Below are positions 13,106 through 48,205 of a DNA stretch of 50,322 bases, one piece after another. Origin of the DNA: an uncultured Bacilli bacterium. Lineage in GTDB: Bacteria > Bacillota_I > Bacilli_A > RF39 > UBA660. Location: the NCBI GenBank assembly GCA_947626425.1, contig CANQRX010000002.1, positions 1-50,322 of the forward strand, in the 5' to 3' direction. How positions within the stretch are numbered: position 1 is the stretch's first letter; each line of letters begins with the position of its first letter. Under the pieces are notes generated by a model that saw only the letters and a list, made by a program, of their open reading frames with translations, ran no database searches and was not told where the DNA came from. The translations under genes and the position numbers were made by a program.

Positions 13106-13267
13106 TATTCTCTTGATAATTTTAAATCTATTTAGGCAACTAAGATAATTGAAAATAGTTTTTTGAAAATAATTTCTTTAACTTTTTTAAATCTTTAACA
13201 TAAAAAAATTATTATCTTTTATTATGTCAAAGCTATAATTAGATTTTGTCAATTTATAAAATGTTTA

Positions 13268-13296
13268 TTGAAAAGATAAGAAAAATAGTTTATACT
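13268..13296 (+). promoter_or_regulatory. Sigma-A-type promoter (TTGAAA-N17-TATACT) of paralog 2
   Basis: Read directly. The conserved block continues to the RBS (..gataatagag..aaatagtaagggatg). Confidence 0.6.
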
Positions 13297-13333
13297 GATG
13301 ATAATAGAGAGAAAATAGTAAGGGATGGGTTTC

Positions 13334-13951: not shown

Positions 13952-14026
13952 ATTTTTAAATCTTATTTCTTTTAATAAAAAAGACATTAAAACATTTTTT
14001 GCTTTTGTTCGTTTTTAAAATGTTCA

Positions 14027-14055
14027 TTGAAAAGACAAGAAAAATAGTTTATACT
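14027..14055 (+). promoter_or_regulatory. Sigma-A-type promoter (TTGAAA-N17-TATACT) of paralog 3
   Basis: Read directly. Confidence 0.6.
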
Positions 14056-14090
14056 GATGATAATAGAGAAAAATAGTAAGGGATGAGGTC

Positions 14091-14804: not shown

Positions 14805-14885
14805 AATTAAAAATTCAAAAGGCCTTTTTCTTGTTTTATAAGATGATATTTGTTAATATTAGAGTAAGAAAAGAGGGATAATATC

Positions 14886-16520: not shown

Positions 16521-16535
16521 AGGAGGGATAATATC

Positions 16536-21250: not shown

Positions 21251-21280
21251 TTTAATAGAAAATAGGAAGGAAAAAGATAA

Positions 21281-22661
21281 ATGAAAATAGAAAATTATAA
21301 GTTAAAAACAAGTAAAAAAGCAAAAATATTGATTGGAAGTATGGTAGGAATAATGGCTCTAGGGGGGGGGGTATCTACTAAATAAAAGTTTAGGAAAATA
21401 CCAAGTCGAACAAAGTTTTCCCATAATGAATGGGAAAATTCAAGCAAACAGTGGTGATGTTTCAATCATTGCTATTAAAGTTGATGGAGCTGTAGTAGAT
21501 GAAATTCCAGCTAAAGGTTCAGGAAAATATTTTGAAAGTGCGGAATGTTCAAATGGAGCTACGGGATCATGGGATCGAACGAATTGGCAATTTTTATTAA
21601 ATACAACCAAAAAAACCAAATGTACATTAAATTTTACAACAACAAAAAGTACAACTGGTGAACAAAGTGGTGCAAGTAAAATGGAAGATTTATTATCTCA
21701 AGAAGAAGATAAAGGATCAGGAATAACTATTGTCAGTGATGATAATAACATTAGATATATTGGTCAAAATCCTAGTAACTATATTTATTTTAATTGTAAA
21801 GATAGTACAACTCAAAACGCCGAAAATTGTGAAACATGGCGAATAATAGGATTAATGGATGGAATAAAAACCAAAGCCGGAAAAACGGAAAGATTGTTAA
21901 AAATCATAAGAGAAAAATTACCTGTTTCTTTAAGTTGGGACTCATCTGCTTCTAGTGTAAATCAAGGCTATGGAGTAAATGAATGGAGTCAAGCAGATTT
22001 AATGACTGTCTTAAATGGCGATTATTTTAAAGGCCAAAAAGGAACTGATAAATGTTATAGTAGTTCTGGCGTATCAACAACAGACTGTCCAGATTGGATC
22101 CAGTATGGTTTAAAAAAATCAGCCCAAGATATGATCGAAGAAGTGGTTTGGAATACGGGAACGGCCGCAGTAACAGAAAACACTTGGGAAAAAGGAAATA
22201 TGCCAGTAGTTCAATATATATGGGAACGAAGTGATTTTACAGGAAAGCAATGTAATGGTGGAAGTTATTGTAACGACGATGTTCAAAGACAAACCACATG
22301 GGAAGGCAAAGTAGGTTTGATGTATCCATCGGACTATGGTTATGCCACCGATGGTGGGAAAGACCAAGTGAAAAGAATGCAATGTTTATATACACCATTA
22401 TATGATTGGAATGATAACAGTAATTGTTATAGTAATGATTGGCTATATGATAGTCAAAATTATCAATGGACAATGACTCCTGCGCCGTATTCTTCGTATG
22501 CTAGCGCTGTGTTCATTGTCCACGCAATCGGGCGTGTCTACTACCGCAATGCCTACAATGCTAACGCGGCTCGCCCCGTCGTTTATTTAAAGTCTTCGGT
22601 AAAAATTACTGGGGGGACAGGCTCTGATTCTGATCCATTTCAATTAAAATTAGAAGAATAA
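21281..22661 (+). CDS. Phase-variable surface protein with C-terminal lectin-like domain; currently frameshifted (OFF) at a G10 tract
   Basis: ATG 21281 encodes MKIENYKLKTSKKAKILIGSMVGIMALGGG, then stops at 21383-21385. With G9, the frame continues YLLNKSLGKYQVEQSFPIMNGKIQ.. into ORF 21426-22661. The C-terminal domain (WRIIGL, YPSDYGYAT, RPVVYLKS) is shared with 39851-41695 and 46537-47938. Confidence 0.7.
21362..21371 (+). repeat. Homopolymeric G10 tract inside signal-anchor codons
   Basis: Counted directly as 10 consecutive G in a roughly 30% GC genome. It encodes the GGG at the end of the TM helix. Confidence 0.9.
22478..22583 (+). other. DGR variable-region-like segment (GC-rich, A-poor) at the 3' end of 21281-22661
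   Basis: About 56% G+C by hand count. AAY/TAY codons are interspersed with A-free codons (..cgc aat gcc tac aat gct aac gcg gct cgc ccc gtc gtt). Confidence 0.45.
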
Positions 22662-25016: not shown

Positions 25017-25144
25017 TTTCTCACCTTCTATTAACTAAATTAATATTACCATACATATAATGAAATTTAAAGTTTTAAAAAGTAAAGTAGTTGAAAAATA
25101 ATGATAATTTTGATAAAGTTATATTAAGAATTGAGGCGAAGATA

Positions 25145-25897
25145 ATGAAAGGAAAAGCCGTGTTAATTTTATTATTTATAATTATTTTGTCATGTCATCA
25201 AGTAAATGCTGAATGCAACAATAATTTACGAAGTGAAGCTGCCAATGTAACTGCTAATTATGTATTGGGGGAAGTAGTTGTAGATAATAAAGGGGTTGAA
25301 CACCCTGAACTAGATGTGGAAAAAATTAAAGAAGAAATTCAAAACAGTGCCGTCGCAGAAAATTTATCAACAAGTGATTATACAATTGTCGATATCGTTT
25401 TATTAAAAGTTTATAATATTACAAAAAATTTATATGTGACTGTTGAAGAAAGTACGGAAAACACCTTAGATACTTACTATTACGAAAATACAAACGATGG
25501 TGAATTGACCATCCGAGTACCAGACACCGATAAAATTCGTGATTATAAAGTTCGCATTTTTTCTAACGACAATTCTTGTCTAAATGAAGAAATTACCTCT
25601 TTGCCTTCGGTCAAAACGCCAATGTATAACCCTTATTCTGAATATGAAATTTGTTTAAACCAAACTAAATATTATTGTCAACCATATGTAACTACCGAGA
25701 TCACAATCACCGAAGAACAACTGTTTGCTGAATTATACAAAGAAGATGAAAACAATAATAACAATTCAGAAATTAACCAAAAAGAAAATATTGTGGTAAA
25801 AATTTTGAAAATTGGGTTACCAATCGGAATTGGCATACTGGCTTTAATTGTAGCAATTATATCAATTAGTAAAAAAGATAGGAGGAGTGACAAATGA
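25145..25897 (+). CDS. Type-I membrane protein, paralog 1 of 3 (signal peptide, 4 conserved Cys, C-terminal TM anchor)
   Basis: MKGKAVLILLFIIILSCHQVNA/ECNNNLRSEAANV.., conserved ..KTPMYNPYSEYEICLNQTKYYCQPYVTTEIT.., and a C-terminal TM helix plus basic tail. The TTG-extended start in the ORF track is unlikely. Confidence 0.7.
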   Translation: MKGKAVLILLFIIILSCHQVNAECNNNLRSEAANVTANYVLGEVVVDNKGVEHPELDVEKIKEEIQNSAVAENLSTSDYTIVDIVLLKVYNITKNLYVTVEESTENTLDTYYYENTNDGELTIRVPDTDKIRDYKVRIFSNDNSCLNEEITSLPSVKTPMYNPYSEYEICLNQTKYYCQPYVTTEITITEEQLFAELYKEDENNNNNSEINQKENIVVKILKIGLPIGIGILALIVAIISISKKDRRSDK

Positions 25898-26628
25898 AAA
25901 AAATCGGTTATTTAATTTTAGCAATATTTTGTTTATCGGCCAAAAATGTGGTAGCAGAGTGTAATCTCGATTTAAGAACTCAAGCAGCCAATGTCAAAAC
26001 AAACTATGTTATGAGTGAAATAGTTCTTGATGAATTTGGTAATGAAGTAACAAATATAAGTGTTGAAGAGGCCAAAAAAGACATTGAAGCCCATCAAGTT
26101 GCTGAAAATGTTAATACAAGTAAGTATTCTATATCAGAAATAGTTCTTTTAAAAATTTATAATTTAACAGATAAATTGTATGTGACTGTAAACGAAAGTA
26201 AAAGTAATACTTTAACTACCTATCATTACCAAGATTCTAATAATGGCGAAATAACTATAAAAGTTCCTGATGTTGATACAATTCGGGAATACAAAGTTCG
26301 CGTCTTTTCTAATGATACATCTTGTTTAGGAGAGGAAATATCATCTCCACCTTCCGTAAAAACCCCAATGTATAATCCTTATTCCGAATATGAAGTATGT
26401 TTAAATCAATCAAAATATTACTGTCAGCCTTATGTAACAACTGAAATAACTACTAATGAAGAAGATATTTTTAATGAATTATATAAAGATGAGGCTGTAA
26501 CAGACGAGGAAGAACAAGTTAAAACTAATTATTGGAAATCTTTAAAAGTGATAATTCCTTTTCTAACTGTTTTGATCTTATTAGGAGCAATTGGTTATAT
26601 ATATTTTAAGAAAAAAGGAAAAAAATAA
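25894..26628 (+). CDS. Type-I membrane protein, paralog 2 of 3
   Basis: Start overlaps the previous stop (translational coupling). Same architecture and conserved blocks as paralog 1. Confidence 0.7.
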   Translation: MKKIGYLILAIFCLSAKNVVAECNLDLRTQAANVKTNYVMSEIVLDEFGNEVTNISVEEAKKDIEAHQVAENVNTSKYSISEIVLLKIYNLTDKLYVTVNESKSNTLTTYHYQDSNNGEITIKVPDVDTIREYKVRVFSNDTSCLGEEISSPPSVKTPMYNPYSEYEVCLNQSKYYCQPYVTTEITTNEEDIFNELYKDEAVTDEEEQVKTNYWKSLKVIIPFLTVLILLGAIGYIYFKKKGKK

Positions 26629-26642
26629 AAGAGGAGAAGCTT

Positions 26643-27401
26643 ATGAAAAAAATACTTTTTTTATTAATTTTGATGATTTATCTTACGATAGATGTCAAAG
26701 CTACCTGTAATAATCAACTCCGTTCGCAGGCTGCCAATGTAAGTGTTAATTATGTTTTAGGGGAAGTTGCAATTACCGAAGATGGTGTTGAACACCCTGA
26801 AGTTGATCTTGAAGAATTAAGAAAAACTATTGCGGAAGGAGCGAAAATAGATCCCAACTTACGGGTAAGCGATTACTTAATTGCGGACATTGTCAATTTA
26901 AAAATTTATAATTTAACAGATAAATTATATGTAACTGTCGAAGAACAAGACGAAGGAATGATTGGCACTTTTACCTATGATGATGTAGTCGATGGCGAAA
27001 TTACAATTCGTGTTCCCGATACTGAAAAAATTCGAGAATATAAAGTTCGCGTCTTTTCTAATGATGAGAGCTGTAAGGATGAAGAAATAACATCACCTCC
27101 AGCCATTAAAACCCCAATGTATAACCCATACTCGGCTTATGAAATATGTGCTGATCAAAATGCCAATAAATATTATTGTCAAGATTATGTTGTAACTGAT
27201 GTAAATATTGATGAAGATGAATTATTTAAAAATTGGAATAATGGAAATGGTCAGAATGAAAATAATTTAAGCGACCAAACAAAAAGAACTTTTAAATTTC
27301 TCCTTTTATATGTTTTGCCTGTAACATTAATAATTTTGGTAATTTTTGTAGGTATTAAAATAAAAAGAAAGAAAAATAAAAATAAGGTTAATAATTTATA
27401 G
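26643..27401 (+). CDS. Type-I membrane protein, paralog 3 of 3
   Basis: GAGGAG RBS. Same architecture (TCNNQLRSQAANV.., KTPMYNPYSAYEICADQNANKYYCQDYV, C-terminal TM plus KRKKNKNK). Confidence 0.7.
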   Translation: MKKILFLLILMIYLTIDVKATCNNQLRSQAANVSVNYVLGEVAITEDGVEHPEVDLEELRKTIAEGAKIDPNLRVSDYLIADIVNLKIYNLTDKLYVTVEEQDEGMIGTFTYDDVVDGEITIRVPDTEKIREYKVRVFSNDESCKDEEITSPPAIKTPMYNPYSAYEICADQNANKYYCQDYVVTDVNIDEDELFKNWNNGNGQNENNLSDQTKRTFKFLLLYVLPVTLIILVIFVGIKIKRKKNKNKVNNL

Positions 27402-32070: not shown

Positions 32071-35000
32071 ATGAAAAAGAAGTTAACAATATTTTTGTTA
32101 AGTTTAAGTTTATTTTTGGGTGTTTGTTTAAAAAATACCCAAGCTGCCGAGGTCTATGATCGGGTTAAAAGTGGATACAAAATATCTGGAACATTTACCA
32201 ATACAGGTATTAGTTATTTTCTCGAAGTAGGTTATAAATATGGTGCTCCTAGTACCGGTAGTTATAATGCTTATAAAAATGGCATTGATGGAATATTTAT
32301 ATGTATTTCACCAGATAAAGATGCTGGAACCTATTATAAAGCGGTTACCGAAGTTAACCCAGATTCACCATCTGTTAAAAATAAAAATACGCGTGCTTTT
32401 TATGTTGCTGTAATTAAGGCATATCAAATTATGGTTGACAGTGGGGAAATTACAACTAAAAAAAGTAATGGTCGCTATTCATATACTGACCGTCAAAAAT
32501 TCTTATTAATTGTTCGTTGGTTAGCAAGTAAATATGGATTATTAGATACTAGCCACCCAAGTAGTTCAACAACTCCGGCTGGTAACTATAAAAAATATGT
32601 TTATTCTGATAGAAGCAAATATTGGAATACGTCCAATTCAACTATTAAAAGAGCTGAAGCTGTAACTAAAGCTGCGATAAAAGTTGGAGATAAAATACTA
32701 AAAGGTTCAACTTACCAAAAACTTATTGATAATGGTGATGTTTGGGGCGCTAGATGGGAAAGTACTGCTCCAACTGTCGAAACCAATGCAAAGAAACCAA
32801 ATTTAGTAACTATAAAGTTTGATGTCAAAGCTAAAAACAGTATTCAAAAAATAAATTACAAAGATTTTAAAGTAGAATGTAATTATGGTTATAAGTGTAA
32901 AGATGTAACAATTAAGACTAAAAAGGAAACTACGAAAAAAGGTAAAGAAAAACAATACATAAGTGTAAGTATTGTTGTCGATACAACTAATGGTAAAAAA
33001 CATAAAGCTCAAAATGCTGGGCAACCATATGGAGTTGTTGTTAAAACTAATTTTTATGATTACCATGATTCATCTCATTTATTCTTATTTAATCCAACAG
33101 TTAGTACAAAACAAAAGATGTTACTAATTAGAGATTATAACCAATCAATGCAAATTGTTACTAAGTTTGTTCCAGAATGGGAAGATATTTGTTCTTGCCA
33201 AAAAGATAGCAACGGCAATTACACTGGAAAATATGAGTTGAAAACAATTGTTAATGGTGTTGTAAAAACCGAAGAATTTGGTTTTAACGATAAAAAAGCT
33301 AAAAAATATGATTGTCCTGATTCTTCAAAATGTGTTAGTGAACCTAATCCATCATGTCAAACACCAGATGAAAGTGATGATGGAAATTATCATTGTAAAG
33401 ATGGTGAAGTTTGTGACGAAGAAAAATACAAAGAAGACTGTGATACAGGTAAGAAACCATCATGTCAAACACCAGATGAAAGCGATGACGGAAAATATCA
33501 CTGCAAAGATGGCGAAGTTTGTGACGAAGAAAAATACAAAGAAGACTGTGATACAGGTAAGAAACCATCATGTCAAACACCAGATGAAAGCGATGACGGA
33601 AAATATCACTGCAAAGATGGCGAAGTTTGTGACGAAGAAAAATACAAAGAAGACTGTGATACAGGTAAGAAACCATCATGTCAAATACCAAGTGAAAGTG
33701 ATGATGGAAATTATCATTGTAAAGATGGTGAAGTTTGTGACAAAGATGAATATGAAGATGACTGTTTATGCCCTGAATTAAAGGATAAATGTGAAGAAAA
33801 TCCTGATGATCCTGCTTGCGGTGAATACAAGGAAAAATGTCCAAATTGTTCAGCAACGGTTACAGTTCCAAACAATTGTAATGATTTTGATGCTGAATCA
33901 ACAGTAGACGGTGTTATTAGCGATATTAATGAAACAGCAAGTAGTTGTAATCCAACAGCTAACTTAGTTAAAACCTGTGTAATTGATAAAAAGGATCAAG
34001 CTGGTTCAAGTTTTGAAGCAACCAATGAAATAAAAAATAACCCTTATTGTAAAGTATGGTGTAAAGAAAAATATGAATTCTCATTACCAACAGCAAAATA
34101 TACTCAAAGTGGTGGTTATTTCCAATTAACAATGAAAATAGCTGCTAAAAGAGATTGTTATGTAAGTGCAGCAGATGACCCAGATAATCCAATTGATAAG
34201 ACAAAATTCTTAAGTGATTTAAGTACTGCTGAAACTGCGGTTAAAAATGCTTATAACGAATATAGTAAATTAAACAATGATGCTAATTTATCTGCTTTAA
34301 ATTCTGCTAAAGAAAAAGTGGAAAGTATTATTAGTGATTTTAATAGTTGTTCAAATGGTTGGAGTAATAATTTCGTTTATAACCCAGAAATTGAATATGA
34401 TTATTACAATGACTATTTAACTAATAGTAAAGGAACATTTGAAAAAATTGAAGGAACCGATACAATGACTAGTGAAGATACTTATTGCTCTGGAGATACT
34501 GATGAAAGTTACAATTGTAAATCAGGTGCATCAAACACTATGCAAACTGAAACTCAAAGCTATGAAAATTGTGATGCTCAAGGATGTAGTGTTAAAACTG
34601 CTCAAATAAGTACAGCTAAATGGATTCAAAAAACTAAAATAGTTGCCAATGCTCAATATCAACCAAAAGAAAAATTCTCAACTTATACAAGTTATGGTAT
34701 AATAAAAATAGATGAACCTAGATGTAATGGTAAAGATTGCTTATATACAAGACTTCCAGATAGTTCATTACCTGTTCAATTAACAACTGGTAAAGGAGTA
34801 TTCCCATTCACATTTACATTTAAAAATATTGGTCAATCAAATACTGATAATAATTTAGGTCGTCTAATTGGTTCTGATAACAGTATTGTAAAAGCCTTTA
34901 ATGAATTACCTGATGAATACCGTTGTTCAAAAGACAATGCAACTGATGCATATGGTGGATATGTTTGTCATTACATTAACAACTGTGATGGATGTGACTT

Positions 35001-35589
35001 TGAATGTGTTGGTGACGATTGTAAGTTTGAAGATGAAGAAGAAAATTGCGAAGGTCCAACTTGTCCATTAACATGTGTAAACTGTGTATTTGATGGTCAA
35101 GAAGCAACTTATACCTTTAGAGCTGTGTCCCTTGCTAATTTATTCCCAAATGAATGTGATGAAAATTCTGATAGTAGTGAATGTCGTACAACCGGCTATA
35201 ACTGGGACGTTGGTGAAAAAGCTAGTTTAACTAAGAAAGCAATCCAAGAAGAAGGTAATAATATCTATATTGAACCAGAATATTCATATACAATGAATTC
35301 CTCACAACTAAGTGCTATTAGAGAATATAATCAAAAAGTTGGTTCATATTCTAATACCACAACTGGAGCATTCTTTAACAACGAACCAGCATTGAAATGC
35401 AATGTTGTTGAAATAAATGGAATTCAATATGAGGTTGAATGTTTATCTACATTCTTATCAAACGGAAATGGTAAATACTTTACCGAAAATAAACGAAATA
35501 CTGAATTTGAACTATGGTCAAATACAGAATATTGCTTAAGCGGTAGCTGTTTAGATCGTAAAAAAGGCGTAGGACCGTCTTGGAAGTAG
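32071..35589 (+). CDS. Giant secreted Cys-rich protein 2 (1172 aa), paralog of 27402-31745
   Basis: GGGGGA RBS and signal peptide (..CLKNTQA/AEV). Shares the N-terminal domain, one C-x-C...C-P module and the entire Cys-rich C-terminal region (..YCKVWCKEKYEFSLPTAKYTQSGGYF.., ends GVGPSWK) with protein 1. Contains four 36-aa tandem repeats. Confidence 0.8.
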   Translation: MKKKLTIFLLSLSLFLGVCLKNTQAAEVYDRVKSGYKISGTFTNTGISYFLEVGYKYGAPSTGSYNAYKNGIDGIFICISPDKDAGTYYKAVTEVNPDSPSVKNKNTRAFYVAVIKAYQIMVDSGEITTKKSNGRYSYTDRQKFLLIVRWLASKYGLLDTSHPSSSTTPAGNYKKYVYSDRSKYWNTSNSTIKRAEAVTKAAIKVGDKILKGSTYQKLIDNGDVWGARWESTAPTVETNAKKPNLVTIKFDVKAKNSIQKINYKDFKVECNYGYKCKDVTIKTKKETTKKGKEKQYISVSIVVDTTNGKKHKAQNAGQPYGVVVKTNFYDYHDSSHLFLFNPTVSTKQKMLLIRDYNQSMQIVTKFVPEWEDICSCQKDSNGNYTGKYELKTIVNGVVKTEEFGFNDKKAKKYDCPDSSKCVSEPNPSCQTPDESDDGNYHCKDGEVCDEEKYKEDCDTGKKPSCQTPDESDDGKYHCKDGEVCDEEKYKEDCDTGKKPSCQTPDESDDGKYHCKDGEVCDEEKYKEDCDTGKKPSCQIPSESDDGNYHCKDGEVCDKDEYEDDCLCPELKDKCEENPDDPACGEYKEKCPNCSATVTVPNNCNDFDAESTVDGVISDINETASSCNPTANLVKTCVIDKKDQAGSSFEATNEIKNNPYCKVWCKEKYEFSLPTAKYTQSGGYFQLTMKIAAKRDCYVSAADDPDNPIDKTKFLSDLSTAETAVKNAYNEYSKLNNDANLSALNSAKEKVESIISDFNSCSNGWSNNFVYNPEIEYDYYNDYLTNSKGTFEKIEGTDTMTSEDTYCSGDTDESYNCKSGASNTMQTETQSYENCDAQGCSVKTAQISTAKWIQKTKIVANAQYQPKEKFSTYTSYGIIKIDEPRCNGKDCLYTRLPDSSLPVQLTTGKGVFPFTFTFKNIGQSNTDNNLGRLIGSDNSIVKAFNELPDEYRCSKDNATDAYGGYVCHYINNCDGCDFECVGDDCKFEDEEENCEGPTCPLTCVNCVFDGQEATYTFRAVSLANLFPNECDENSDSSECRTTGYNWDVGEKASLTKKAIQEEGNNIYIEPEYSYTMNSSQLSAIREYNQKVGSYSNTTTGAFFNNEPALKCNVVEINGIQYEVECLSTFLSNGNGKYFTENKRNTEFELWSNTEYCLSGSCLDRKKGVGPSWK
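33349..33780 (+). repeat. In-frame tandem repeat, 4 x 108 bp (36 aa: PSCQTPDESDDG-N/K-YHCKDGEVCDEEKYKEDCDTGKK)
   Basis: Units start at 33349, 33457, 33565 and 33673. Units 2 and 3 are identical. Units 1 and 4 share a different set of synonymous variants, and unit 4 diverges at its 3' end. Confidence 0.9.
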
Positions 35590-35598
35590 GAGGATATT

Positions 35599-36042
35599 AT
35601 GAAAGAATCTTATTGGGGTTATTGGATAATTGTACTAGGTGTATTTATCATCGTCATAATGATGTTAATATCTAATGTGACAACGACTAATACTCAAGAC
35701 TATTATTTAATAAAAGAAGTATCAGAAGCTTCGATGGTAGATGCAATAGATTATGCGTATTATCGTCAAAGTGGTGAATTAAGAATTAATCGTGAAAAAT
35801 TTGTAGAAAGCTTTTTAAGACGCTTTGCTGAAAATGTTTCACTTAGTACATATACTGTAAATTTTTACGATATATATGAAGCACCACCTAAAGCAAGTGT
35901 TGAAGTTATAACCAAAAGCAATACTTATAATATAAATTCTGATGCCCAAAGTTTTGATATTGTTAATAGAATAGATGCAATATTAGAACTAGATGGTACT
36001 GCAGAATCAGGAACGTTTGATAACTTACAATCAAATCCTTAA
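35599..36042 (+). CDS. Small N-terminally membrane-anchored protein (possible pseudopilin-like or assembly factor)
   Basis: AGGAGG RBS 10 nt after the giant gene stop. MKESYWGYWIIVLGVFIIVIMMLIS hydrophobic N-terminus, then a soluble domain of about 115 aa. It sits directly upstream of the Tad-like core. Confidence 0.55.
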   Translation: MKESYWGYWIIVLGVFIIVIMMLISNVTTTNTQDYYLIKEVSEASMVDAIDYAYYRQSGELRINREKFVESFLRRFAENVSLSTYTVNFYDIYEAPPKASVEVITKSNTYNINSDAQSFDIVNRIDAILELDGTAESGTFDNLQSNP

Positions 36043-36080: not shown

Positions 36081-36914
36081 ATGGGAAATTTATTATCAAA
36101 ACTTAAAAGGTTTTTAGAAAATAAAAATACAGTAACAATTTTATGTGTAATCGCGGGAATTGCAGTTTTGTATATTGGTTATAATTGGCGGGTTAATTCA
36201 GCTATTAGTCCGACATCTATTCCTTATGCAAAAACTGCTTTACCTTCACGTCATGTTATAACATCAGATGATATTGGTTATATGGAAGTTTCTAGTGCGG
36301 TCGTTAATCGTAGTTCTAATATTATTAGAAATTCCAATTTAATTATTGGTAAAGAGGTAATGTATGGTACTACCATTCCTCAAAATAGTTTTTTCTATGA
36401 TAGTGCAATTACCGATTCTAATTTACAACCAGATGATGTTATGGCTGATATTCCAAACGGCTATACATTGTTTACTTTATCAGTAGACTTACATACTACT
36501 TATGGTAACTCTATTTATCCTGGAAATTATATTGATTTATGGTTTAAGGGTGTAGATGATTACAACAAAATAATGTATACCAACTTAATAAGAAGTATTA
36601 AAGTTTCCGATGTTCGGGATAGTAATGGTCAATCTGTTTTTGAAACATCTATGGAAAAAAGAACACCATCTGAATTATTATTTGCAGTTCCTGATGATAT
36701 GTATTCTTTGCTTAAAAAAGCTCAATACATTGGTGGGGTAGAAATAATACCAGTTCCAAGAAACCGTAATTATACTGCCAATCCTGGAGAAACAGAAGTT
36801 GCTAGTGATTATGTAAAAGAATTTATTTTATCAAAAACCGCAATTATTCCAGATGAAAATATAAGTACAAACACAAATGATAATAACGATGAAAACAATA
36901 ATGTAGAAGAATAA
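36081..36914 (+). CDS. CpaB/RcpC-like Flp pilus assembly protein (SAF-domain protein)
   Basis: AGGAGG RBS and an N-terminal TM helix. This is followed by a SAF-like segment (IPYAKTALPSRHVITSDDIGYMEV...IIGKEVMYGTTIPQNSFF). It lies immediately upstream of a CpaF/TadA-type ATPase. Confidence 0.5.
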   Translation: MGNLLSKLKRFLENKNTVTILCVIAGIAVLYIGYNWRVNSAISPTSIPYAKTALPSRHVITSDDIGYMEVSSAVVNRSSNIIRNSNLIIGKEVMYGTTIPQNSFFYDSAITDSNLQPDDVMADIPNGYTLFTLSVDLHTTYGNSIYPGNYIDLWFKGVDDYNKIMYTNLIRSIKVSDVRDSNGQSVFETSMEKRTPSELLFAVPDDMYSLLKKAQYIGGVEIIPVPRNRNYTANPGETEVASDYVKEFILSKTAIIPDENISTNTNDNNDENNNVEE

Positions 36915-36933
36915 CAAGAAAGGGGTGCCGGCC

Positions 36934-38061
36934 ATGAATGATGCTATATTTTCGCAATTAGACTTTGGGCCAATCGAAGAATTTTTAAGAAATGAAGATG
37001 TAACAGATATTTCTTATAGTAATAATGGCTGTGTTTGGTTAAAATCACTTTCTCAAGGTTGCTATAAAGTTGAACGACCTGAAATAAATAATGCACTTAT
37101 GGAAAAATTAGCATTTCAGTGTGCAAATGTTATGGGTAAAACATTTAACATGGCCCATCCTTTCTTAGATGCAGAAAGTGCCGAATTACGTTTAAATTTT
37201 GTTCATGATTCCATTGCTACAAATGGAATTGCTTGCGTTATCCGTAAAACACCAGCCAAAATCCGATTAAATAAAACTAAATTATTAGATGAAAAATACG
37301 TTTCCGAAAGTGTTCATGATTTTTTGATTAAATGTGTAGAAGGTCATGCCAATATAATTGTCAGTGGAGAAACTGGTTCCGGAAAAACCGAATTAGTTAA
37401 ATACTTAGCTTCACATACCAAAGAAAACGAAAAAGTTATTACCATTGAAGATACATTGGAGTTACATTTAGACCGAATTTTTCCTCATCGGGATATTGTG
37501 GCAATGAAAACTAATAATATTGCGAGTTATTCAGATGTTTTAGTAACATGTATGCGTCAAAATCCCATTTGGATATTACTTTCCGAAGTTCGTAGTGCTG
37601 AAGCGGTTATGGCCGTCCGTAACTCGATTTCTTCAGGGCACCACATTTTATCAACAATTCACTCCGATAAAGCAAGTTTAATTCCGATGCGTATGTATTC
37701 TTTAGTTGAATCAAACATTGATGTCGAACAGTTTGTCGCGACAATTCACCGATACGTCCAAATAGGAGTCTATGTAAAAGGTTATTTAAGTAAAGAACTG
37801 GGTAGATTTCAAAGAGAAATATTGGAAGTTTGTGAATTTTATGTTGATGATAATAATAAGCCAAAAACAAATATTATATTTAAAAAAACTTTAACAGGTG
37901 AGATTACTATGAATAATCCTACCGAACATTTAAGAGATTATTTAGGTATTTCAGGGGTTCTTTTACCAGATGACATTTTTGCATCAGAAAAAGATAATTC
38001 TGATTCTAGTCAAATGGCTAATAATACTTCATCTGATATTGAGCAGATAGAAACTTTATAA
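36934..38061 (+). CDS. CpaF/TadA-type secretion ATPase (VirB11/GspE superfamily)
   Basis: Walker A VSGETGSGKTE, ITIEDTLEL, Walker B-like IWILLSEVRSAEA, and His-box-like HHILSTIHS. Size of about 375 aa is typical of TadA/CpaF. Confidence 0.8.
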   Translation: MNDAIFSQLDFGPIEEFLRNEDVTDISYSNNGCVWLKSLSQGCYKVERPEINNALMEKLAFQCANVMGKTFNMAHPFLDAESAELRLNFVHDSIATNGIACVIRKTPAKIRLNKTKLLDEKYVSESVHDFLIKCVEGHANIIVSGETGSGKTELVKYLASHTKENEKVITIEDTLELHLDRIFPHRDIVAMKTNNIASYSDVLVTCMRQNPIWILLSEVRSAEAVMAVRNSISSGHHILSTIHSDKASLIPMRMYSLVESNIDVEQFVATIHRYVQIGVYVKGYLSKELGRFQREILEVCEFYVDDNNKPKTNIIFKKTLTGEITMNNPTEHLRDYLGISGVLLPDDIFASEKDNSDSSQMANNTSSDIEQIETL

Positions 38062-38077
38062 GAAGGAGAGAGGACCA

Positions 38078-38974
38078 ATGATTGAGCTTATAATTTTAAT
38101 AGCCTTAGCAGTTTTTGCTTTATCATACCGATTTAATAATGGAGAAAATATTTACAAATTTTTTGTTACCAAAATTTCAATGGCTTATGATCGATATGCT
38201 CCATATAGTTTTAAAACGGTTCGGGAAAAAACCAAAGAATTAGGAAAAGAGTACACTGCTAAAGATTATTTAACCCAAGTAGCGCTCTTTGTTGCCGTTG
38301 CTGGAGGAATATCTTATCTATATTTTTACAATATTATTATTTCTGCTATTTATGCAGGTGTAGCGGTTTTGTTTATCCCGTTTTTAGCTTATTTAAGGTG
38401 TCAAAAAGCTTATTCAGAATTTTTATTCGAGCAAACCCAGGTTTATACAACCAATGTTATAATGGAATTTAATACCACTCAAAGTTTTGTAAAATCTTTA
38501 GAAGGCGTTCGGGATTCTGGAATCTTAGAAAATCCTCTTTTGGATGATGTTAAAACAATGATTGATATGTCTTACCAAAATGGAACAATTGATGAATCAA
38601 TAGAATTCTTTAATAAAAAGTATCCTTACTATATGGTAAAAAATATGCACCAATTATTTTTACAAATAACAAAAGAAGGTGCAAAAGACTCTGGTGAAGC
38701 CTTAGAAAATATGTCCATGGATATCGATGCCTTAGTTGAAGGTGTTTATCGAGACCAAATCGACAGAGCAAACTTTCACAAACGATTTATAACTTTTGGA
38801 TTAGCCTTATTTCTATTAGTAATGGCCATGCAATTTCTACTCGGAACAGAATCTTATTTAAAATTATTAGATATGTGGTATGTACAAGTAGTCCTTCACT
38901 TAATAATCTGGATTAACTGTTTCTTTCTATACCGCGGCGAACGTTTCTATTATGAAGATGTGGGGGTAGAATAA
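38078..38974 (+). CDS. TadB-like platform protein (T2SS-F-type membrane protein)
   Basis: 298 aa. An N-terminal TM helix, a helical cytoplasmic domain, then C-terminal TM helices. Position is directly after the ATPase. The call rests on topology and context. Confidence 0.5.
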   Translation: MIELIILIALAVFALSYRFNNGENIYKFFVTKISMAYDRYAPYSFKTVREKTKELGKEYTAKDYLTQVALFVAVAGGISYLYFYNIIISAIYAGVAVLFIPFLAYLRCQKAYSEFLFEQTQVYTTNVIMEFNTTQSFVKSLEGVRDSGILENPLLDDVKTMIDMSYQNGTIDESIEFFNKKYPYYMVKNMHQLFLQITKEGAKDSGEALENMSMDIDALVEGVYRDQIDRANFHKRFITFGLALFLLVMAMQFLLGTESYLKLLDMWYVQVVLHLIIWINCFFLYRGERFYYEDVGVE

Positions 38975-39762
38975 TGTACTGGGAAATAATTACCTTAGCA
39001 ATTATAATATTGTTTGTTTTAAATTATACCGGAAGGATTTCTGCTTCTCGTTTCGTTAGCGATAATGAAGTAATCTTTCAAAAATTAAAAGAAAAAGATT
39101 GGGATTTTTATGTAAAGATTAGATATGGAGATACGGTAAACCCAGACTTCTTATTTACCAAAAGAGTTCAAAACGGGTTAATAATAATTGTCATCATGCT
39201 TTGCTTCTTTATTTCTAATTTATCTTATGTAACCATTTTGTTTAGTTTAATTGCCGGCTATTTAGTATTTAAAATGCAATATAATAATTTAAAGAATTAT
39301 TATAAAAGACATTTACATGAAATAGACGCCATGTTACCACATTATTTAAAAAGTTTGGAAATTTTAATTCAACATTACACCGTTCCAGTAGCTTTAGGAA
39401 AATCAATTGAAGATGCCCCAGCTATATTTAAAGACGGTTTACAAGAATTAATTAGTCAAATCAACAGTGGGGATAGTTCAATTAATCCTTATATGCAATT
39501 CGCCAAAGTTTATCCAGTTCGTGATTCAATGCGAATGATGCGTTTATTATATCGTTTATCATTAGGACGACAAGAACATAAACAAGAACAATTAATTACT
39601 TTCTCAAGAACCATTTCTAATTTACAACAAAAAGCAAGAGAAATAAAATACAAAGAACGTCTTGACAAAATGGAAAAGAAAACCATGCAAATGCTAGTTG
39701 TAACCGGTGTTGGGGTAATGATATTACTAGTTTTAGCGGTTTTAATGATGATGAATATGTAA
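38974..39762 (+). CDS. TadC-like platform protein (T2SS-F-type membrane protein)
   Basis: 262 aa. Start overlaps the previous stop (TAATG). Same TM - cytoplasmic domain - TM topology as the preceding gene. Confidence 0.5.
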   Translation: MYWEIITLAIIILFVLNYTGRISASRFVSDNEVIFQKLKEKDWDFYVKIRYGDTVNPDFLFTKRVQNGLIIIVIMLCFFISNLSYVTILFSLIAGYLVFKMQYNNLKNYYKRHLHEIDAMLPHYLKSLEILIQHYTVPVALGKSIEDAPAIFKDGLQELISQINSGDSSINPYMQFAKVYPVRDSMRMMRLLYRLSLGRQEHKQEQLITFSRTISNLQQKAREIKYKERLDKMEKKTMQMLVVTGVGVMILLVLAVLMMMNM

Positions 39763-39794: not shown

Positions 39795-39826
39795 TTGACA
39801 AACGGGGGGGGGGTATATGATAAAAT
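39795..39826 (+). promoter_or_regulatory. Putative promoter whose -35/-10 spacer contains a G10 tract
   Basis: TTGACA (39795-39800), then AAC plus G10. Candidate -10 elements are TATGAT (39816-39821, spacer 15) or extended TG-A-TAAAAT (39818-39826, spacer 20). Confidence 0.5.
39804..39813 (+). repeat. Homopolymeric G10 tract (intergenic)
   Basis: Counted directly. The in-frame stop at 39827-39829 shows it is not part of the 39851 ORF. Confidence 0.9.
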
Positions 39827-39850: not shown

Positions 39851-41695
39851 ATGGAAAAGAAAACAAATACTTTTAATTATTTTATTGTTGTATTAATTAT
39901 TTTAGTTATTGCTTTTTTAGGAATAACGTATGCTTATTGGAATGTAACAATTAATCAAGAAAATAAAAATGTAGTAAAATCAGTTTGTTTAAAAGTAAGT
40001 ATGGCTAAAGATGAAAATGAAATAAGTCTACCTAAAGCTATGCCCATCAGTGACGAAGAAGGTGTAGCTTTAGCACCATATACCTTTAGCATTAAAAATA
40101 CTTGTAATGATAATGCAAGTTACCAAATAAATTTAGAGTCTTTATCCAAAATAAATGGAACAGAAGAAATACCTTTTAATGATAGATTAGCACCCAAATA
40201 TGTTCGCTTTAAATTAAATAAAACCGAAAAACCAGATGAAGGAACAATGTTATTATTAAGTAATACGGATGAAGTAACCCCAATTTTAGATAATACCTAT
40301 AGTTCCCATAAATTAATGACCGGATATTTAAGTCCAAGTGAAACCAAAGATTTTGAATTAAGATTATGGATAGATGAAGATGCTGATGAAGGAGCGATGA
40401 ATAAAACATTTGCCAGTAAAGTAACCATAACCAATGCTTATTTAGAGGAAGATAAAATACCACCAACAGCCACTTTAGATTTAGCGGTTTGTGATAATCT
40501 AATTACAGCTACCGGAAGTGGTCAAGCAAATAAAGACAAAACAATTTCTAAATATGAATATAAATTAGATGATGATGATTGGTATGAAACAACAAGTACT
40601 GAACCAAAAACATTTACAGTTGAAGATTATGGCTTACATAAAATAAGTTTAAGAGTAACGGATAATACCAATAATGTAAGTGGTGAAGTAATAAAAGAAG
40701 TTGAAATAAAAAAACCAGAAACTGTAAATATTAAAGGTAAAGATATTCCAGTAGCAACCTGTGGAGATGGATTATATCGAGTGGAACATAAAGATGGCCC
40801 TGATAACTGGAAAGAAACAGAATATCGTTTTGCCGGAGTAAACTATACTAATGATAGCACTTCATATGTCCATAATTATGTAAGCTTTAATGAAGAAATT
40901 TGGCGAATTATAGGATTAGTAAATGTTAAAACAGAAGATGGAAAATATGACCAACGATTAAAAATTGTCCGAACTGATGGAGTAGGTAACCAAAAGAATT
41001 TTGGCAGTTATCAATGGAATAATACAGCTAATAGTGACTGGACGAAATCATCATTAAAAAATATGTTAAACGGAATTTACTATACTAGTGAAAATGGAGA
41101 TTGTTATACAACAAGTAGTACAGCAACCCAATGTGATTTTAGTCAAGAAAGTACTACTTTACCAAATGGTTTAAATGAAACAGCCCGAGGAATGGTCGAT
41201 GATGGAGTAATCTGGAATTTAGGAGGAACAGCAGCATATCAAACTACAACAGTAACCCAATTTTATAATTATGAACGAGGAACGACAGTGTATAATGATA
41301 GACCAAAGGAATGGACAAAAACCAATGATGCAAGTGAACATAAAGGAGTAGGCTTAATTTATCCAAGTGATTATGGGTATGCCACGAATGGTGGAACCTC
41401 GGGAAGAGATTATTGTTTTAAAAAAGCACTATACAGTTGGGCCGGAAGTGGTTATAAAGAAGAATGTGCCAATAAAGATTGGTTAAAGCCAAGTAGTAGC
41501 TATTTATGGACGATTACGCCGAATTCGGGCAGTTCCCACGCTGCGTTCAGTGTCCACTCGTCGGGGTTTGTCATCGGCAACTACAGCGTCGCGAACTCCT
41601 ACGTCGTCTGGCCCGTCGTGTATCTGAAATCGAATATTCAGATTTCCGGCGGTGATGGGACTTTTGAAAATCCCTTTACTCTTGAATTAGATTAA
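39851..41695 (+). CDS. Fusion surface protein: TasA-like-signal N-terminal domain + Ig-like linker + lectin-like C-terminal domain with DGR-VR-like end
   Basis: N-terminus ..IILVIAFLGITYAYWNV. Residues 1-195 align with the 12.5-14.8 kb paralogs (PISD, PYTFSIKNTC, FELRLWIDEDA). Residues about 200-614 align with 46537-47938, with long identical DNA stretches. Confidence 0.8.
   Translation: MEKKTNTFNYFIVVLIILVIAFLGITYAYWNVTINQENKNVVKSVCLKVSMAKDENEISLPKAMPISDEEGVALAPYTFSIKNTCNDNASYQINLESLSKINGTEEIPFNDRLAPKYVRFKLNKTEKPDEGTMLLLSNTDEVTPILDNTYSSHKLMTGYLSPSETKDFELRLWIDEDADEGAMNKTFASKVTITNAYLEEDKIPPTATLDLAVCDNLITATGSGQANKDKTISKYEYKLDDDDWYETTSTEPKTFTVEDYGLHKISLRVTDNTNNVSGEVIKEVEIKKPETVNIKGKDIPVATCGDGLYRVEHKDGPDNWKETEYRFAGVNYTNDSTSYVHNYVSFNEEIWRIIGLVNVKTEDGKYDQRLKIVRTDGVGNQKNFGSYQWNNTANSDWTKSSLKNMLNGIYYTSENGDCYTTSSTATQCDFSQESTTLPNGLNETARGMVDDGVIWNLGGTAAYQTTTVTQFYNYERGTTVYNDRPKEWTKTNDASEHKGVGLIYPSDYGYATNGGTSGRDYCFKKALYSWAGSGYKEECANKDWLKPSSSYLWTITPNSGSSHAAFSVHSSGFVIGNYSVANSYVVWPVVYLKSNIQISGGDGTFENPFTLELD
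41519..41620 (+). other. DGR variable-region-like segment
   Basis: About 62% G+C and 14% A by hand count. See the codon comparison with 47759-47860 in the findings. Confidence 0.55.
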
Positions 41696-44063: not shown

Positions 44064-44384
44064 TTAGTTTAAAAAAGAAATTTTAGTTATTTGTTCAAAA
44101 TAAAGGGAAGTATGATCATCAAAATATATTTGTTTGTTTTGAAAATTAAAGTGATCAATAATTCCTAATTTTCGATAAAACTGATTTTTCCAAAAATAAA
44201 TTATTTGGATTTTTTCTTTCGTGTGATAAGCTTTTTGAATATTTTGTTCAAGATTTTCTTTGTCATCTTCACTTAAAATCGATAATTTTTGTTGATTTCT
44301 TTTTTCTTTTAATTCCTGTAATACTTCGCTTGCAGGTACTACGGCATTAAAGGGTTGCCACTTAACTTCGCCACGATTACTCAT
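44064..44384 (-). CDS. YolD-like protein
   Basis: AAAGGTGG RBS. MSNRGEVKWQPFNAV.. and its size and position downstream of a UmuC-like polymerase match the Bacillus yolD/yqzH arrangement. Confidence 0.7.
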   Translation of the reverse strand: MSNRGEVKWQPFNAVVPASEVLQELKEKRNQQKLSILSEDDKENLEQNIQKAYHTKEKIQIIYFWKNQFYRKLGIIDHFNFQNKQIYFDDHTSLYFEQITKISFLN

Positions 44385-45639
44385 AATGACCACCTTTCTT
44401 TTTATTACGTTCTTTAATCGTTGAATTGCTTAAAAGACTTGTTGCTTTTAAAACACTATTTTTGCCAAACTGTTGATGAATTTGATCTAAAACCAAATCT
44501 AAATCATTTTGTTTTTCTTGCTTTTCTAAAGGATTAAATAAATCTAATTGAATACCTTGATACTTCGATAATTTTCCTAAAGCAATACTAACTTTTCTTA
44601 TTGGTGTATTTTCTTCATAATAACGATCAAAAATAATTTTGCAAACTTGAAATAAACTTTCCGTCGAGCGAGTAGGTAAATCTAATTTTGTGGAATGATA
44701 AAAACCTCCTCCGATATTTAAGGAATAACTAATTCCTAAATAAATTAAATTAGTTTCTAAATTTTTACTTCGAAGCCTTTTCGTTAACACCTCTAACATT
44801 TCTTCAATTATTAAAAATATTTCTTCATTGTAATAATCCTTAAAAAGGACTTGACTATGACTAATTGATTTTTCTTTTGGAGCATGGTTAAAATCGCTAA
44901 TTAAAGAGTTATCTATCCCATTCGCATGTTCCCATAATTCCTGACCAATAACACCAAACTTATTTTTTAAAAGCTCAGGGTTATAGTTTGCTAAATCCCC
45001 AACCGTTATTATTCCTAAATTATTAAGCCGTTTTTCCATTCGTGATCCAATTCCCCACATTTTGGAAAGGGGAGTGATTGGCCAAAGTTTAGAAGGCACA
45101 TCATTATAAGTCCATTTAGCTATGCCATTTTTATATTTTTTCGCTTCGACATCCATAGCTATTTTAGCTAAAAGTAAATTAGGTCCAATTCCACAAGTCG
45201 CAGTTAAACCTGTTTTTGCTTCAATCGTTTGTAAAATTTTTAATGCTAGCTGTTCATCCGTTAATTGGTAATAATCTAAATAAGTTGTAACATCTAAAAA
45301 ACATTCATCAATCGAATAAATATGTAAGTCATTTTCGCTAACAAAGTCTAAATAAATGTTAATAACTTCTTTACTTTTTTGGGTATATAAACCCATTCGT
45401 GGCGGAACAATTTGATATTTTATTTCTTTGGGAATATTATAAAGCCTAGTCCGAGAAGGAATATTTTGAGCTTTTAAAAAAGGCGTTATCGCTAAAGTAA
45501 TGGCACCCTTACCTTGTTTATCATTCGCAACGACTAAGGCAGTTGTAAAAGGATTTATTCCTCGTTCGACACATTCACAAGAAGCAAAAAAACTTTTTAA
45601 ATCAATACATAAAATATGGCGATTACTTTTTTGGTCCAT
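44377..45639 (-). CDS. Y-family DNA polymerase (UmuC/DinB-like, UvrX/YqjW type)
   Basis: GGAGGTG RBS before MDQKSNRHILCIDLKSFFASCE (catalytic D-x-K-x-F-F-A), SIDECFLDVT, and an HhH region. Confidence 0.85.
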   Translation of the reverse strand: MDQKSNRHILCIDLKSFFASCECVERGINPFTTALVVANDKQGKGAITLAITPFLKAQNIPSRTRLYNIPKEIKYQIVPPRMGLYTQKSKEVINIYLDFVSENDLHIYSIDECFLDVTTYLDYYQLTDEQLALKILQTIEAKTGLTATCGIGPNLLLAKIAMDVEAKKYKNGIAKWTYNDVPSKLWPITPLSKMWGIGSRMEKRLNNLGIITVGDLANYNPELLKNKFGVIGQELWEHANGIDNSLISDFNHAPKEKSISHSQVLFKDYYNEEIFLIIEEMLEVLTKRLRSKNLETNLIYLGISYSLNIGGGFYHSTKLDLPTRSTESLFQVCKIIFDRYYEENTPIRKVSIALGKLSKYQGIQLDLFNPLEKQEKQNDLDLVLDQIHQQFGKNSVLKATSLLSNSTIKERNKKKGGHYE

Positions 45640-45744
45640 TAAAAACACCTCCCAAACTTTTGTTCAATAACATTATAACAAAATTAGAAGGAAATACAAT
45701 TGACAAAAATTAACAATTTTGGGAAGATAAAACAGGTGAAGAAA

Positions 45745-46494: not shown

Positions 46495-46536
46495 TTTAAG
46501 TAGAAAAACTAGGTAAAAAATGAAAGGAAAAAGAAA

Positions 46537-47938
46537 ATGAAAATTGATAATTATAAGTTAAAAAACAGAAAAAAAGCAAAAATTTTAATAGGAAGTATGG
46601 CCGGAATAATAGCCCTAGGGGGGGGGGTATATATTAAGTAGAAGTTATGGAAAATACCAAGTAGAACAAAGCTTTCCCATAATGGAAGGCCAAATAAAAA
46701 TTAGAAAAATAACAGTAGATTTAAGTTTAGAACCTTGTGATGATACAATTTTAGCTACAACAGAAGTAACCCCAGCAGATAATATTAAAAAGTATGAATA
46801 TCAAATTGACAGTGAAAGTTGGAAAGAAGGTTCTGCTACACAGAATTTTATTGTACCGTCGAGAGGGCATCATACAGTAAAAGTTAAAGTAACTGCGGGA
46901 TCAAAAACAGCTGAAACAAGTAAAGAGATAGATATGCCAGCCTCAGTAACCGTAGATATCTCTGGAAAAGCAATTCCACTTGTATCATGTGATCCAAATG
47001 GATTATATAAAGTCGAACATAACGAAGCGGATGTTGATGAAGGATTTAGCCATGAAGAATATCGTTATGCGGGAGTAAATTATACTGATGCAGATACACC
47101 ATATGTTCATAATTATGTAAAATTTAATGAAGAAAAATGGCGAATCATCGGATTAGTGAATGTAAAAACTGGAGAAGGCGCCTATGACCAACGATTAAAA
47201 ATCGTGCGAACTAGTGGAGTAGGTAACCAAAATAATTTTGGAAGTTATTATTGGAATAATAAAAGTAAAAATGATTGGACAAGTTCATCATTAAAAAATA
47301 TGTTAAACGGAATTTACTATAATAGTGGAAGTGGAAGTTGTTATACAACAAGTATTACAGCAACCCAATGTGATTTTAATTCTGAAAGTGGAACTTTACC
47401 AAAAGGATTAAGTCAAGAAGCTCGAGAAATGGTAGATGGAGAAGTAACATGGAATTTAGGAGGAACAAATGCTAATACTACTTCTACTTCTACAGTAACC
47501 CAATTTTATAATTATGAGCGAGGAACGACAGTGTATAGTAATCGACCAACGGAATGGACAAAAACCAATGATGCAAGTGAACATAAAGGAGTAGGCTTAA
47601 TTTATCCGAGTGATTATGGGTATGCCACGAATGGTGGAACCTCGGGAAGAGATTATTGCTTTTCAGAAGCATTATTTAAATGGGATACAGGAGATTATAA
47701 AACAAACTGTTCAAGTAATGATTGGTTAAAATCAAGTGGTTTAGTGTGGACGATTACGCCGGATTCGGGCAAATCCGGCAATGCGTTCTATGTCAACTCG
47801 TCGGGGTCTGTCGACGGCCGCTTCAGCGTCATTTACTCCCGAGTCGTCTGGCCCGTCGTATATCTGAAATCGAATGTTAAAATTATTGATGGAGATGGCA
47901 CTTTTCAAAATCCGTACATCTTATCTGTTCAAAATTAA
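46537..47938 (+). CDS. Phase-variable surface protein with Ig-like and lectin-like domains; currently frameshifted (OFF) at a G10 tract
   Basis: ATG 46537 encodes MKIDNYKLKNRKKAKILIGSMAGIIALGGG, then stops at 46639-46641. With G9, the frame continues YILSRSYGKYQVEQSFPIMEGQIK.. into ORF 46682-47938. Confidence 0.7.
46618..46627 (+). repeat. Homopolymeric G10 tract inside signal-anchor codons
   Basis: Counted directly. Confidence 0.9.
47759..47860 (+). other. DGR variable-region-like segment
   Basis: Same frame and length as 41519-41620. All 20 invariant codons are shared, and differences are confined to 14 codons. Confidence 0.55.
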
Positions 47939-47945: not shown

Positions 47946-48002
47946 TCGAAGAGGTGTACTATCTAGTGTGTAAATATTATACACTAGATAGTACACCTTC
48001 GA
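47946..48002. other. Long perfect-stem hairpin/palindrome 8 nt after the stop codon
   Basis: GGTGTACTATCTAGTGT (47953-47969) pairs perfectly with ACACTAGATAGTACACC (47981-47997). Extra pairs on both sides extend the stem. No T-run follows. Confidence 0.7.
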
Positions 48003-48205
48003 TAATTTATAAAATGTGACCTTGTAAAGGTCGGCCAAAACAATAAATTTTGGACAAGTTATTGCAACACTTATTAGACATGTAAGTGCAACTACTTTAT
48101 TAATAATTGCATTTACTTGTCTAATTAAGAATTTATCGAAAATAATCTAGGAAATTTGTTAATTTCTTAATTTTTTAGTATAATAGGCCCCGAAGGACTG
48201 GTGCT

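Follow-up and report, generated by a model that had tools for sequence, protein, structure and literature searches.

Does the uncultured Bacilli bacterium represented by contig CANQRX010000002.1 (assembly GCA_947626425.1; RF39, UBA660) diversify surface proteins by means of a diversity-generating retroelement (DGR)? The question is raised by two short segments on the forward strand of positions 1 to 50,322 of that contig, the stretch analyzed here and called the window below. They lie at 41519-41620 (VR1) and 47759-47860 (VR2), the latter being followed by a long hairpin. A preliminary description, made from the sequence alone, had proposed that both are DGR variable regions (VRs) with the same length, frame and invariant scaffold, that they are served by a single template repeat (TR), and that the hairpin is a retrohoming structure. 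We consider it likely that 47762-47842 is the VR of a chromosomal DGR target gene, with the TR and the reverse transcriptase (RT) located elsewhere in the genome. The VR assignment is based upon the sequence signature, the fold of the encoded protein and the recurrence of the same arrangement in relatives. The hairpin is not part of the DGR machinery.

Direct sequence comparison confirmed that the two segments agree in length, frame and scaffold. Over an ungapped stretch of 134 nt around VR1 and VR2, 108 positions were identical, and the runner-up site on either strand of the window reached 59/134. The scaffold pattern (21 nt, 17 specified bases) matched the window at VR1 and VR2 only, with 0.00 matches expected by chance. 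Judged from these alignments, the agreement of the scaffolds is far beyond chance. Both segments are GC islands (56–57% GC) in surrounding DNA of approximately 25–35% GC (background about 28%).

Over the 102 nt, VR1 and VR2 differ at 24 sites in 14 codons, distributed 10, 10 and 4 over codon positions 1, 2 and 3, such that the first two positions hold 20 of the 24 differences. The remaining 20 codons (60 nt) are 100% identical and contain a single A; the bodies of the two genes are 40–41% A. The coding flanks are more diverged, with 208/240 identical positions upstream (13% divergence) and 42/54 downstream (22% divergence). At 13% divergence, the probability of finding no difference in 60 nt is 2e-4. 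Of the 24 differing sites, 19 have an A in either VR1 or VR2 (binomial p = 0.003), which bears out the earlier remark that some variable codons of VR2 (aaa, aat, aac) resemble unmutated template. The VR1/VR2 codon pairs are AAT/GAT, AGT/AAA, CAC/GGC, GCT/AAT, AGT/TAT, CAC/AAC, TTT/TCT, ATC/GAC, AAC/CGC, TAC/TTC, GCG/ATT, AAC/TAC and TAC/CGA, and the template codons behind them would be AAT, AAC, AAA and TAC. The variation is found, as in DGR VRs, at sites consistent with template adenines (AAY codons, positions 1 and 2) on an invariant, A-poor scaffold.

Within the shared sequence three parts can be distinguished on the forward strand. The sequence common to VR1, and the GC-type codon usage, begin with TGG ACG ATT ACG CCG (47747-47761), which is probably the 5' edge of the TR homology. 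The mutable part (47762-47842) consists of 13 variable codons alternating with A-free invariant codons. Translated from 47762, VR2 reads DSGKSGNAFYVNSSGSVDGRFSVIYSRVVWPVV; the coordinates of the preliminary description start one codon sooner, at CCG (Pro). After the last variable codon, both VR1 and VR2 continue into a GC-rich invariant block of 17 nt plus 15 nt, GTCGTCTGGCCCGTCGT(A/G)TATCTGAAATCGAAT (47843-47875 in VR2), in which the single difference between the copies, at 47860, is synonymous. This block is a candidate for the initiation of mutagenic homing site (IMH), a GC-rich sequence that does not vary, marks the 3' limit of mutagenesis in a VR and is not the same as its TR counterpart. 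VR2 ends 26 codons before the stop codon.

The genes carrying the two segments are paralogues. VR1 lies within a gene at 39851-41695 (614 amino acids), directly 3' of a Tad-like pilus/secretion cluster, and VR2 within a 418 amino acid open reading frame (ORF) at 46682-47938, whose frame is open from 46619 and which ends with TAA at 47936-47938. An upstream ORF at 46537-46641 (MKIDNYKLKNRKKAKILIGSMAGIIALGGG...) encodes the N-terminal signal peptide or membrane anchor of the VR2 gene and is here out of frame with the gene body. A Pfam scan of the VR1 and VR2 genes gave no family match, a PDB sequence profile search with the VR-gene protein returned 0 matches, and the sole NCBIfam match, a weak one, was OmpL47/PKD-like and lay in the N-terminal domain. 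Nevertheless, a protein search recovered more than 4,267 homologues. Their C-termini follow one plan, W-T-[IL]-[TS]-P, about 27 residues, then V-W-P-x-x-Y-L, with invariant and hypervariable columns alternating between these anchors. Among the eight closest homologues the same columns are variable, with 4–7 different residues each, and the intervening columns are invariant. The residues in the variable columns of these eight are almost all Y, N, S, F, G, D, I, A, R, H, T, L, V or C, which is the repertoire of NNY codons; the exceptions are one K and one E. The family is undescribed and without a Pfam model, despite its thousands of members. It was not found in viral contigs or JGI metagenomes by protein-guided locus searches, nor in phage or plasmid records by tblastn.

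DGR variable regions usually reside at the C-terminal end of a lectin-type fold, and the modelled structure places VR2 in just such a position. The AlphaFold model of the whole VR2 protein (pLDDT 93.7) contains an Ig/PKD-like N-terminal domain, and the C-terminal 319 amino acids, modelled with pLDDT 93.2, form an enlarged C-type-lectin-like domain of about 320 residues. Using Foldseek, the best PDB match of the C-terminal model was the immunoglobulin A (IgA) peptidase of Thomasclavelia ramosa (9qa6, E = 2.4e-7), followed by the C-terminal domain of Legionella Lcl (8q4e_A, probability 0.9) and then by many C-type lectin domains at weak E-values. The N-terminal domain of 9qa6 is itself a double-sized C-type-lectin-like domain resembling Lcl (PMC12237041). 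According to these models, VR2 is situated at the C-terminus of the target ORF and of an enlarged domain with the C-type-lectin fold. The likeness to the Lcl C-terminal domain (DUF1566-type) and to the T. ramosa N-terminal domain is structural, with no sequence relationship detectable in the PDB profile and Pfam searches. Neither of the two proteins is known to be diversified.

A protein-guided scan, using one genome per species, yielded 78 related loci (L001–L078), which were examined with 10 kb flanks. Nearly all are from metagenome-assembled genomes (MAGs) of uncultured Bacilli or "Tenericutes" from the rabbit gut ("Lapin") and the chicken gut, and many paralogues occur per genome; the Lapin bin CANQIN01, for example, has 13 family loci. 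These paralogues fall into two groups. In the first, the VR-equivalent segments have 47–59% GC, A-free invariant codons, NNY variable codons and 7% A in the third position; in the second, they have approximately 30% GC, normal genomic codon usage and 29% third-position A. Base composition alone thus separates diversified from non-diversified paralogues, so that DGR targets can be found cheaply even where the RT lies on a different contig. Several genomes possess two or more GC-rich VRs on one scaffold (e.g. L012/L015, L052/L063 and L039/L048/L026), as is expected if one template serves scattered VRs. GC-rich C-terminal segments were also observed in other protein classes, at L071 3684-3854, L070 8094-8264 and 9295-9456, and L066 2891-3157. 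One of these classes is FGE-sulfatase-like and ends in ...RGG...FRLVLAF, and another ends in ...GVRP.... By their composition these look like additional DGR target classes in the same lineages.

The window contains a third GC-rich VR-like segment, VR3, at 22467-22589 of the forward strand (53% GC; WTMTPAPYSSYASAVFIVHAIGRVYYRNAYNANAARPVVYL), in the gene at 21426-22661. Its scaffold and length are unlike those of VR1 and VR2, and a second template would therefore be needed. In the mechanism that we propose, the RT would copy a TR RNA made of AAY and AAA codons on an A-free scaffold and would misincorporate opposite the template adenines. The VR would then be overwritten by the resulting cDNA as far as the invariant 3' block (47843-47875), so that 13 codons in the ligand-binding face of the C-terminal C-type-lectin-like domain are rewritten. 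VR1 would be rewritten from the same TR as VR2, and VR3 from a different one. Rewriting of both copies from one TR would explain why the VR1 and VR2 scaffolds are identical even though the surrounding paralogues have diverged. Such identity also implies that the rewriting is later than the separation of the paralogues, and we infer recent DGR activity on VR1 and VR2.

Several results weigh against this reading. Ungapped scans, in which pieces of 134 nt and 60 nt from the three VRs served as queries, found no third, TR-like copy on either strand of the window. Pfam scans of the ORFs, a regular expression for RT motifs and tblastn with Brt of Bordetella phage BPP-1 revealed no RT in the 50 kb. 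Using tblastn, BPP-1 Avd had no match in the window or the 78 loci. Neither RT nor TR was found within 10 kb of these loci, 948 kb in all, by tblastn with Brt, an RT-motif scan, a GC-island survey and an all-against-all blastn; the last two returned only further VRs, plus collagen-like and low-complexity genes, with no non-coding A-rich partner. The scaffold patterns had no match in collections of genome, viral and metagenome contigs, the pattern used in the genome scan being too specific, and no protein had index words in common with the translation of the predicted TR. Furthermore, at two positions that are variable across the wider family, both VR1 and VR2 have the same codons (TCG and GGC), which requires a lineage-specific TR or coincidence. 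The same species was present, at about 3x coverage, in three other ENA assemblies, from which VR2 was not recovered. VR1 is identical in L085, and VR3 is identical in L088 and L089. Since VR1 and VR3 are unchanged across these three samples, diversification between or within populations was not observed and ongoing diversification is not shown. Of the earlier proposal that one TR serves multiple remote VRs, the shared TR stands as a well-supported inference, no TR or RT having been found on the contig or near the 78 loci. On the sequence signature, an RT and a TR common to VR1 and VR2 would be present in the genome outside the DNA covered by these searches.

These same results invite the suggestion that the VRs are relics of a former DGR, that is, GC-rich cassettes now frozen, with neither RT nor TR left and no rewriting today. 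RT and TR were found nowhere accessible, and VR3 remained untouched in L089 even though its gene body there differs at 27 sites, all within a 480-nt patch (window 21947-22425), in a contig otherwise equal to the window. In addition, the VR segments of some relatives are of intermediate GC content (37–45%) and resemble decaying cassettes. We regard this explanation as unlikely, because 60 nt of identical scaffold beside flanks that are 13–22% diverged place the rewriting after the divergence of the paralogues, which makes a long-dead relic improbable. Nor is there any sign of AT-biased decay, the 60 nt having a single A although the genome is only 29% GC, and identical VRs are to be expected in near-clonal samples, as DGR homing is rare per generation. 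The patch in L089 looks like a gene-conversion or recombination tract acquired from a paralogue. It draws attention to a different possibility, in which no retroelement is involved, gene conversion among the paralogues keeps the cassette uniform, and the variable codons reflect ordinary diversifying selection. The family is indeed highly paralogous, with mosaic tracts such as this one and 3' halves that are 83–86% identical between paralogues. Conversion and selection would leave unexplained the near-total lack of A in the invariant codons, the GC-type codons in a genome of 29% GC, the restriction of the variable residues to those of NNY codons and the excess of A at the variable sites, and we consider them an extremely improbable source of this pattern.

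Is the hairpin then a part of the same system? It is situated on the forward strand at 47946-48002, 3' of the VR2 stop codon. As had been described, a perfect stem of 17 bp (47953-47969/47981-47997) is found in a structure that begins 8 nt past the stop. The stem reaches 22 bp if one G-T pair is allowed (core arms 47952-47973 and 47977-47998), and outer TCGAA/TTCGA arms extend it to 47946-48002. This AT-rich structure is the top-ranked inverted repeat of the entire window. Folding of the 281-nt intergenic stretch gave z = -8.2, and a 100-nt stretch comprising the stem and one small neighbouring hairpin gave -46 kcal/mol. In principle it could function in DGR target recognition or as a DGR cruciform, representing a new type, long-stemmed and distal, that promotes retrohoming into VR2. 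It is the strongest inverted repeat of the window and lies downstream of a VR, and in BPP-1 it is the structure of the stem, not its sequence, that matters (PMC3240598).

On every point of comparison, however, the hairpin departs from those described in DGRs, which lie 4–34 bp after the VR and have a GC-rich stem of 7–10 bp and a 4-nt GRNA loop (PMC3240598). Its core stem starts 92 nt past the last scaffold base (86 nt for the outer arms), beyond the stop codon, the stem is AT-rich and 17–22 bp in length, and the loop is not a 4-nt GRNA. In BPP-1, lengthening the stem or changing GC to AT pairs reduces function (PMC3240598). In the 90 nt that follow each VR, no perfect stem is longer than 5 bp (VR1), 3 bp (VR2) or 4 bp (VR3), and none of these is a hairpin of the DGR type. 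Nothing comparable follows VR1, which has the same scaffold, or VR3, or any of the 22 GC-rich VRs of relatives. The mean longest perfect downstream stem was 7.1 bp for 25 GC-rich VR genes versus 6.7 bp for 40 AT-rich paralogues, the VR2 hairpin being the sole outlier. Comparison with other VR copies in related genomes was the check that the preliminary description had named for its retrohoming proposal, and by that check the link is refuted. We therefore hold a DGR role for this hairpin to be very improbable. A hairpin 3' of a VR is not, by itself, evidence for a DGR recognition element.

Most likely, the hairpin is a 3'-end or terminator stem-loop which separates the VR2 gene from recG, although this assignment is weak. 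In L022, a syntenic relative in which yolD, the polymerase gene and the alkylation-repair gene likewise precede the target gene, that gene is closed by an ordinary terminator (AAGTATG...CATACTT and then nine T). Against a terminator, the hairpin is followed by UAAUUUAUAAAAU, which is not a clean U-run, its 22-bp stem is atypical, and a scan with the terminator consensus made no call. A search of Rfam gave no family match, only sub-threshold microRNA-precursor hairpin models, and no copies of the hairpin were found in related loci or viral contigs; the intergenic region is without homology in the loci. A second, imperfect inverted repeat is present in the same intergenic region at 48073-48125 of the forward strand, 5' of a promoter-like site for recG (48156-48184).

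Among the known systems, the arrangement proposed here most resembles the DGR of Treponema denticola, with TvpA and seven remote targets, and other non-phage DGRs (Wu et al. 2018, PMC5758913). Remote targets are well established for non-phage DGRs; Wu et al. list 45 DGRs with 73 non-adjacent targets, and in ten of these 45 there are targets more than 100 kb away (PMC5758913). The likeness extends to scattered paralogous chromosomal targets, a C-terminal VR in a C-type-lectin-type fold, several VRs per scaffold, and most targets being without an adjacent RT. In contrast to the T. denticola type, RT and TR are not seen here and the system is known from its targets alone. The target family is undescribed, with a double-sized lectin-like domain related to the N-terminal domain of the T. 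ramosa IgA peptidase, its bearer is an uncultured gut member of the Bacilli with low GC content, and every target possesses a poly-G switch. With Mtd/VR1 of phage BPP-1 (Guo et al. 2011, PMC3240598), VR2 shares AAY-type variable codons on an invariant scaffold, a place at the C-terminus of a lectin-fold protein, and a GC-rich invariant block at the 3' edge of the VR. It differs from BPP-1 in having no compact cassette (mtd-avd-TR-brt), and in that the BPP-1 hairpin, with its 8-bp GC-rich stem and GAAA loop, directly follows the VR. A scattered, remote-target DGR is thus of a known kind, and what is new is the target family and its pairing with poly-G tracts. Few DGRs are known that have several remote targets in the chromosome, and the window adds to them a lineage of rabbit and chicken gut Bacilli known only from MAGs.

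The window contains only three G or C homopolymers of at least 8 nt. All three are G10 on the forward strand, with one at the 5' end of each VR gene. In the VR1 gene the tract (39804-39813) is located in the promoter spacer, between TTGACA and the -10 region, in the arrangement TTGACA-AAC-G10-TATATGAT. In the VR2 and VR3 genes it lies in the 5' coding region (46618-46627 and 21362-21371, respectively), following a signal or anchor peptide that starts at ATG 46537 or 21281, and the gene body is thereby out of frame. For VR2, G10 would correspond to OFF and G9 or G12 to ON; likewise, VR3 is out of frame with G10 and in frame with G9 or G12. When one G is removed from ORF 46537-46641, it becomes fused to the gene body, and the product matches the N-terminus of P0002 (459 amino acids) almost residue for residue. 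P0002 is accordingly the in-frame (G9-type) product and P0003 starts like the out-of-frame form, a comparison made at the protein level. From the upstream region through the 5' end, the VR3 and VR2 genes (21259-21439 and 46515-46695) are 83% identical, with the gene bodies more diverged; promoter region, signal peptide and poly-G tract all fall within this shared part.

The tracts recur throughout the family. Fifty-two tracts of G8-12 were found in the 948 kb of window and related loci, compared with 0.6 expected, and without exception they share the strand of the family genes; 36 stand directly after TTGAC, and 40 have a family gene next downstream. The commonest motif is cTTGACA-N2-3-polyG-TAT...TATAAT, directly 5' of a family gene. 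Examples of tracts are L032 9555-9564, L017 1132-1141, L036 4194-4203 and L070 403-412. Homopolymer-tract contingency loci, well known from surface proteins of Neisseria, Haemophilus and Mycoplasma, vary in phase by slipped-strand mispairing in promoter spacers or 5' coding regions. The present genes resemble them in having G8-12 between TTGACA and the -10 box or just past the signal peptide, and in orthologues that differ in frame, ON or OFF. Judged from the position of the tracts and these frames, the target family is phase-variable by slipped-strand mispairing, and the predicted switch is family-wide. Unlike the usual contingency loci, the switch is coupled here to genes which also bear DGR-type VRs. 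A full-text search of the literature found no paper linking DGR targets to homopolymer phase variation, and this coupling is undescribed so far.

Perhaps this lineage of uncultured gut Bacilli varies a surface lectin-like family on two levels, by a poly-G ON/OFF switch in each gene and by an unlinked DGR acting in trans, with at least two templates, on a subset of the genes (three in the window). We find the considerations for and against this combined picture to be evenly balanced. If it is true, the cell would control the choice of variable adhesins or receptors to be expressed as well as their binding targets. The presence of a poly-G switch on each target suggests that expression state and binding specificity vary independently. 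Such variation bears upon the evasion of phage or of host IgA by gut commensals; the closest solved fold is that of a non-catalytic domain at the N-terminus of an enzyme that cleaves IgA.

The genes between the VR1 and VR2 targets encode a class B sortase, YolD (44064-44393), a Y-family polymerase (44377-45648) and a DNA-alkylation repair protein, and recG follows the VR2 gene. The polymerase and YolD were considered as a possible mutator and rejected, since this ordinary translesion-synthesis pair, which is syntenic in L022, cannot explain A-specific, cassette-wide rewriting. The Tad-like cluster just 5' of the VR1 gene (36081-39762) encodes an RcpC/CpaB-like protein, a T2SSE/CpaF-like ATPase and two polytopic membrane proteins; this machinery might secrete the VR1 target or display it. 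Preceding the cluster are a DUF5411 gene (35599-36042) and a gene for a cysteine-rich protein of 1,172 amino acids (32071-35589), the latter with 108-nt tandem repeats at 33346-33765 that specify Cys-rich units of 36 amino acids. A protein of 1,447 amino acids shows an in-frame length difference of 111 nt between the window and L087 (30877-30986). The rest of the window contains housekeeping genes (EzrA, ThiI, Dus), the Tad-like cluster and paralogous surface proteins, and the region is rich in duplicated genes for surface proteins or proteins of unknown function. Among the tandem paralogue sets are three proteins of about 205–225 amino acids with common upstream regions (12397-14768), two AAA-ATPase/PD-(D/E)XK genes that are 90–99% identical (14869-18170), and three proteins of approximately 250 amino acids (25091-27401).

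Contigs from the other samples break repeatedly at the same points. L083 and L086, which come from two samples, share the start point 41601 within the last variable codon of VR1. This may reflect heterogeneity upstream of that point, of which it is only a weak hint, or repeat-induced breaks in the assembly graph. L080 starts at 48078, inside the second inverted repeat 5' of recG, and ends 22 nt before the end of the window, and L081 and L082 start at window position 21, 20 nt from its start. The recurrence of such breaks suggests repeats or heterogeneity at those points.

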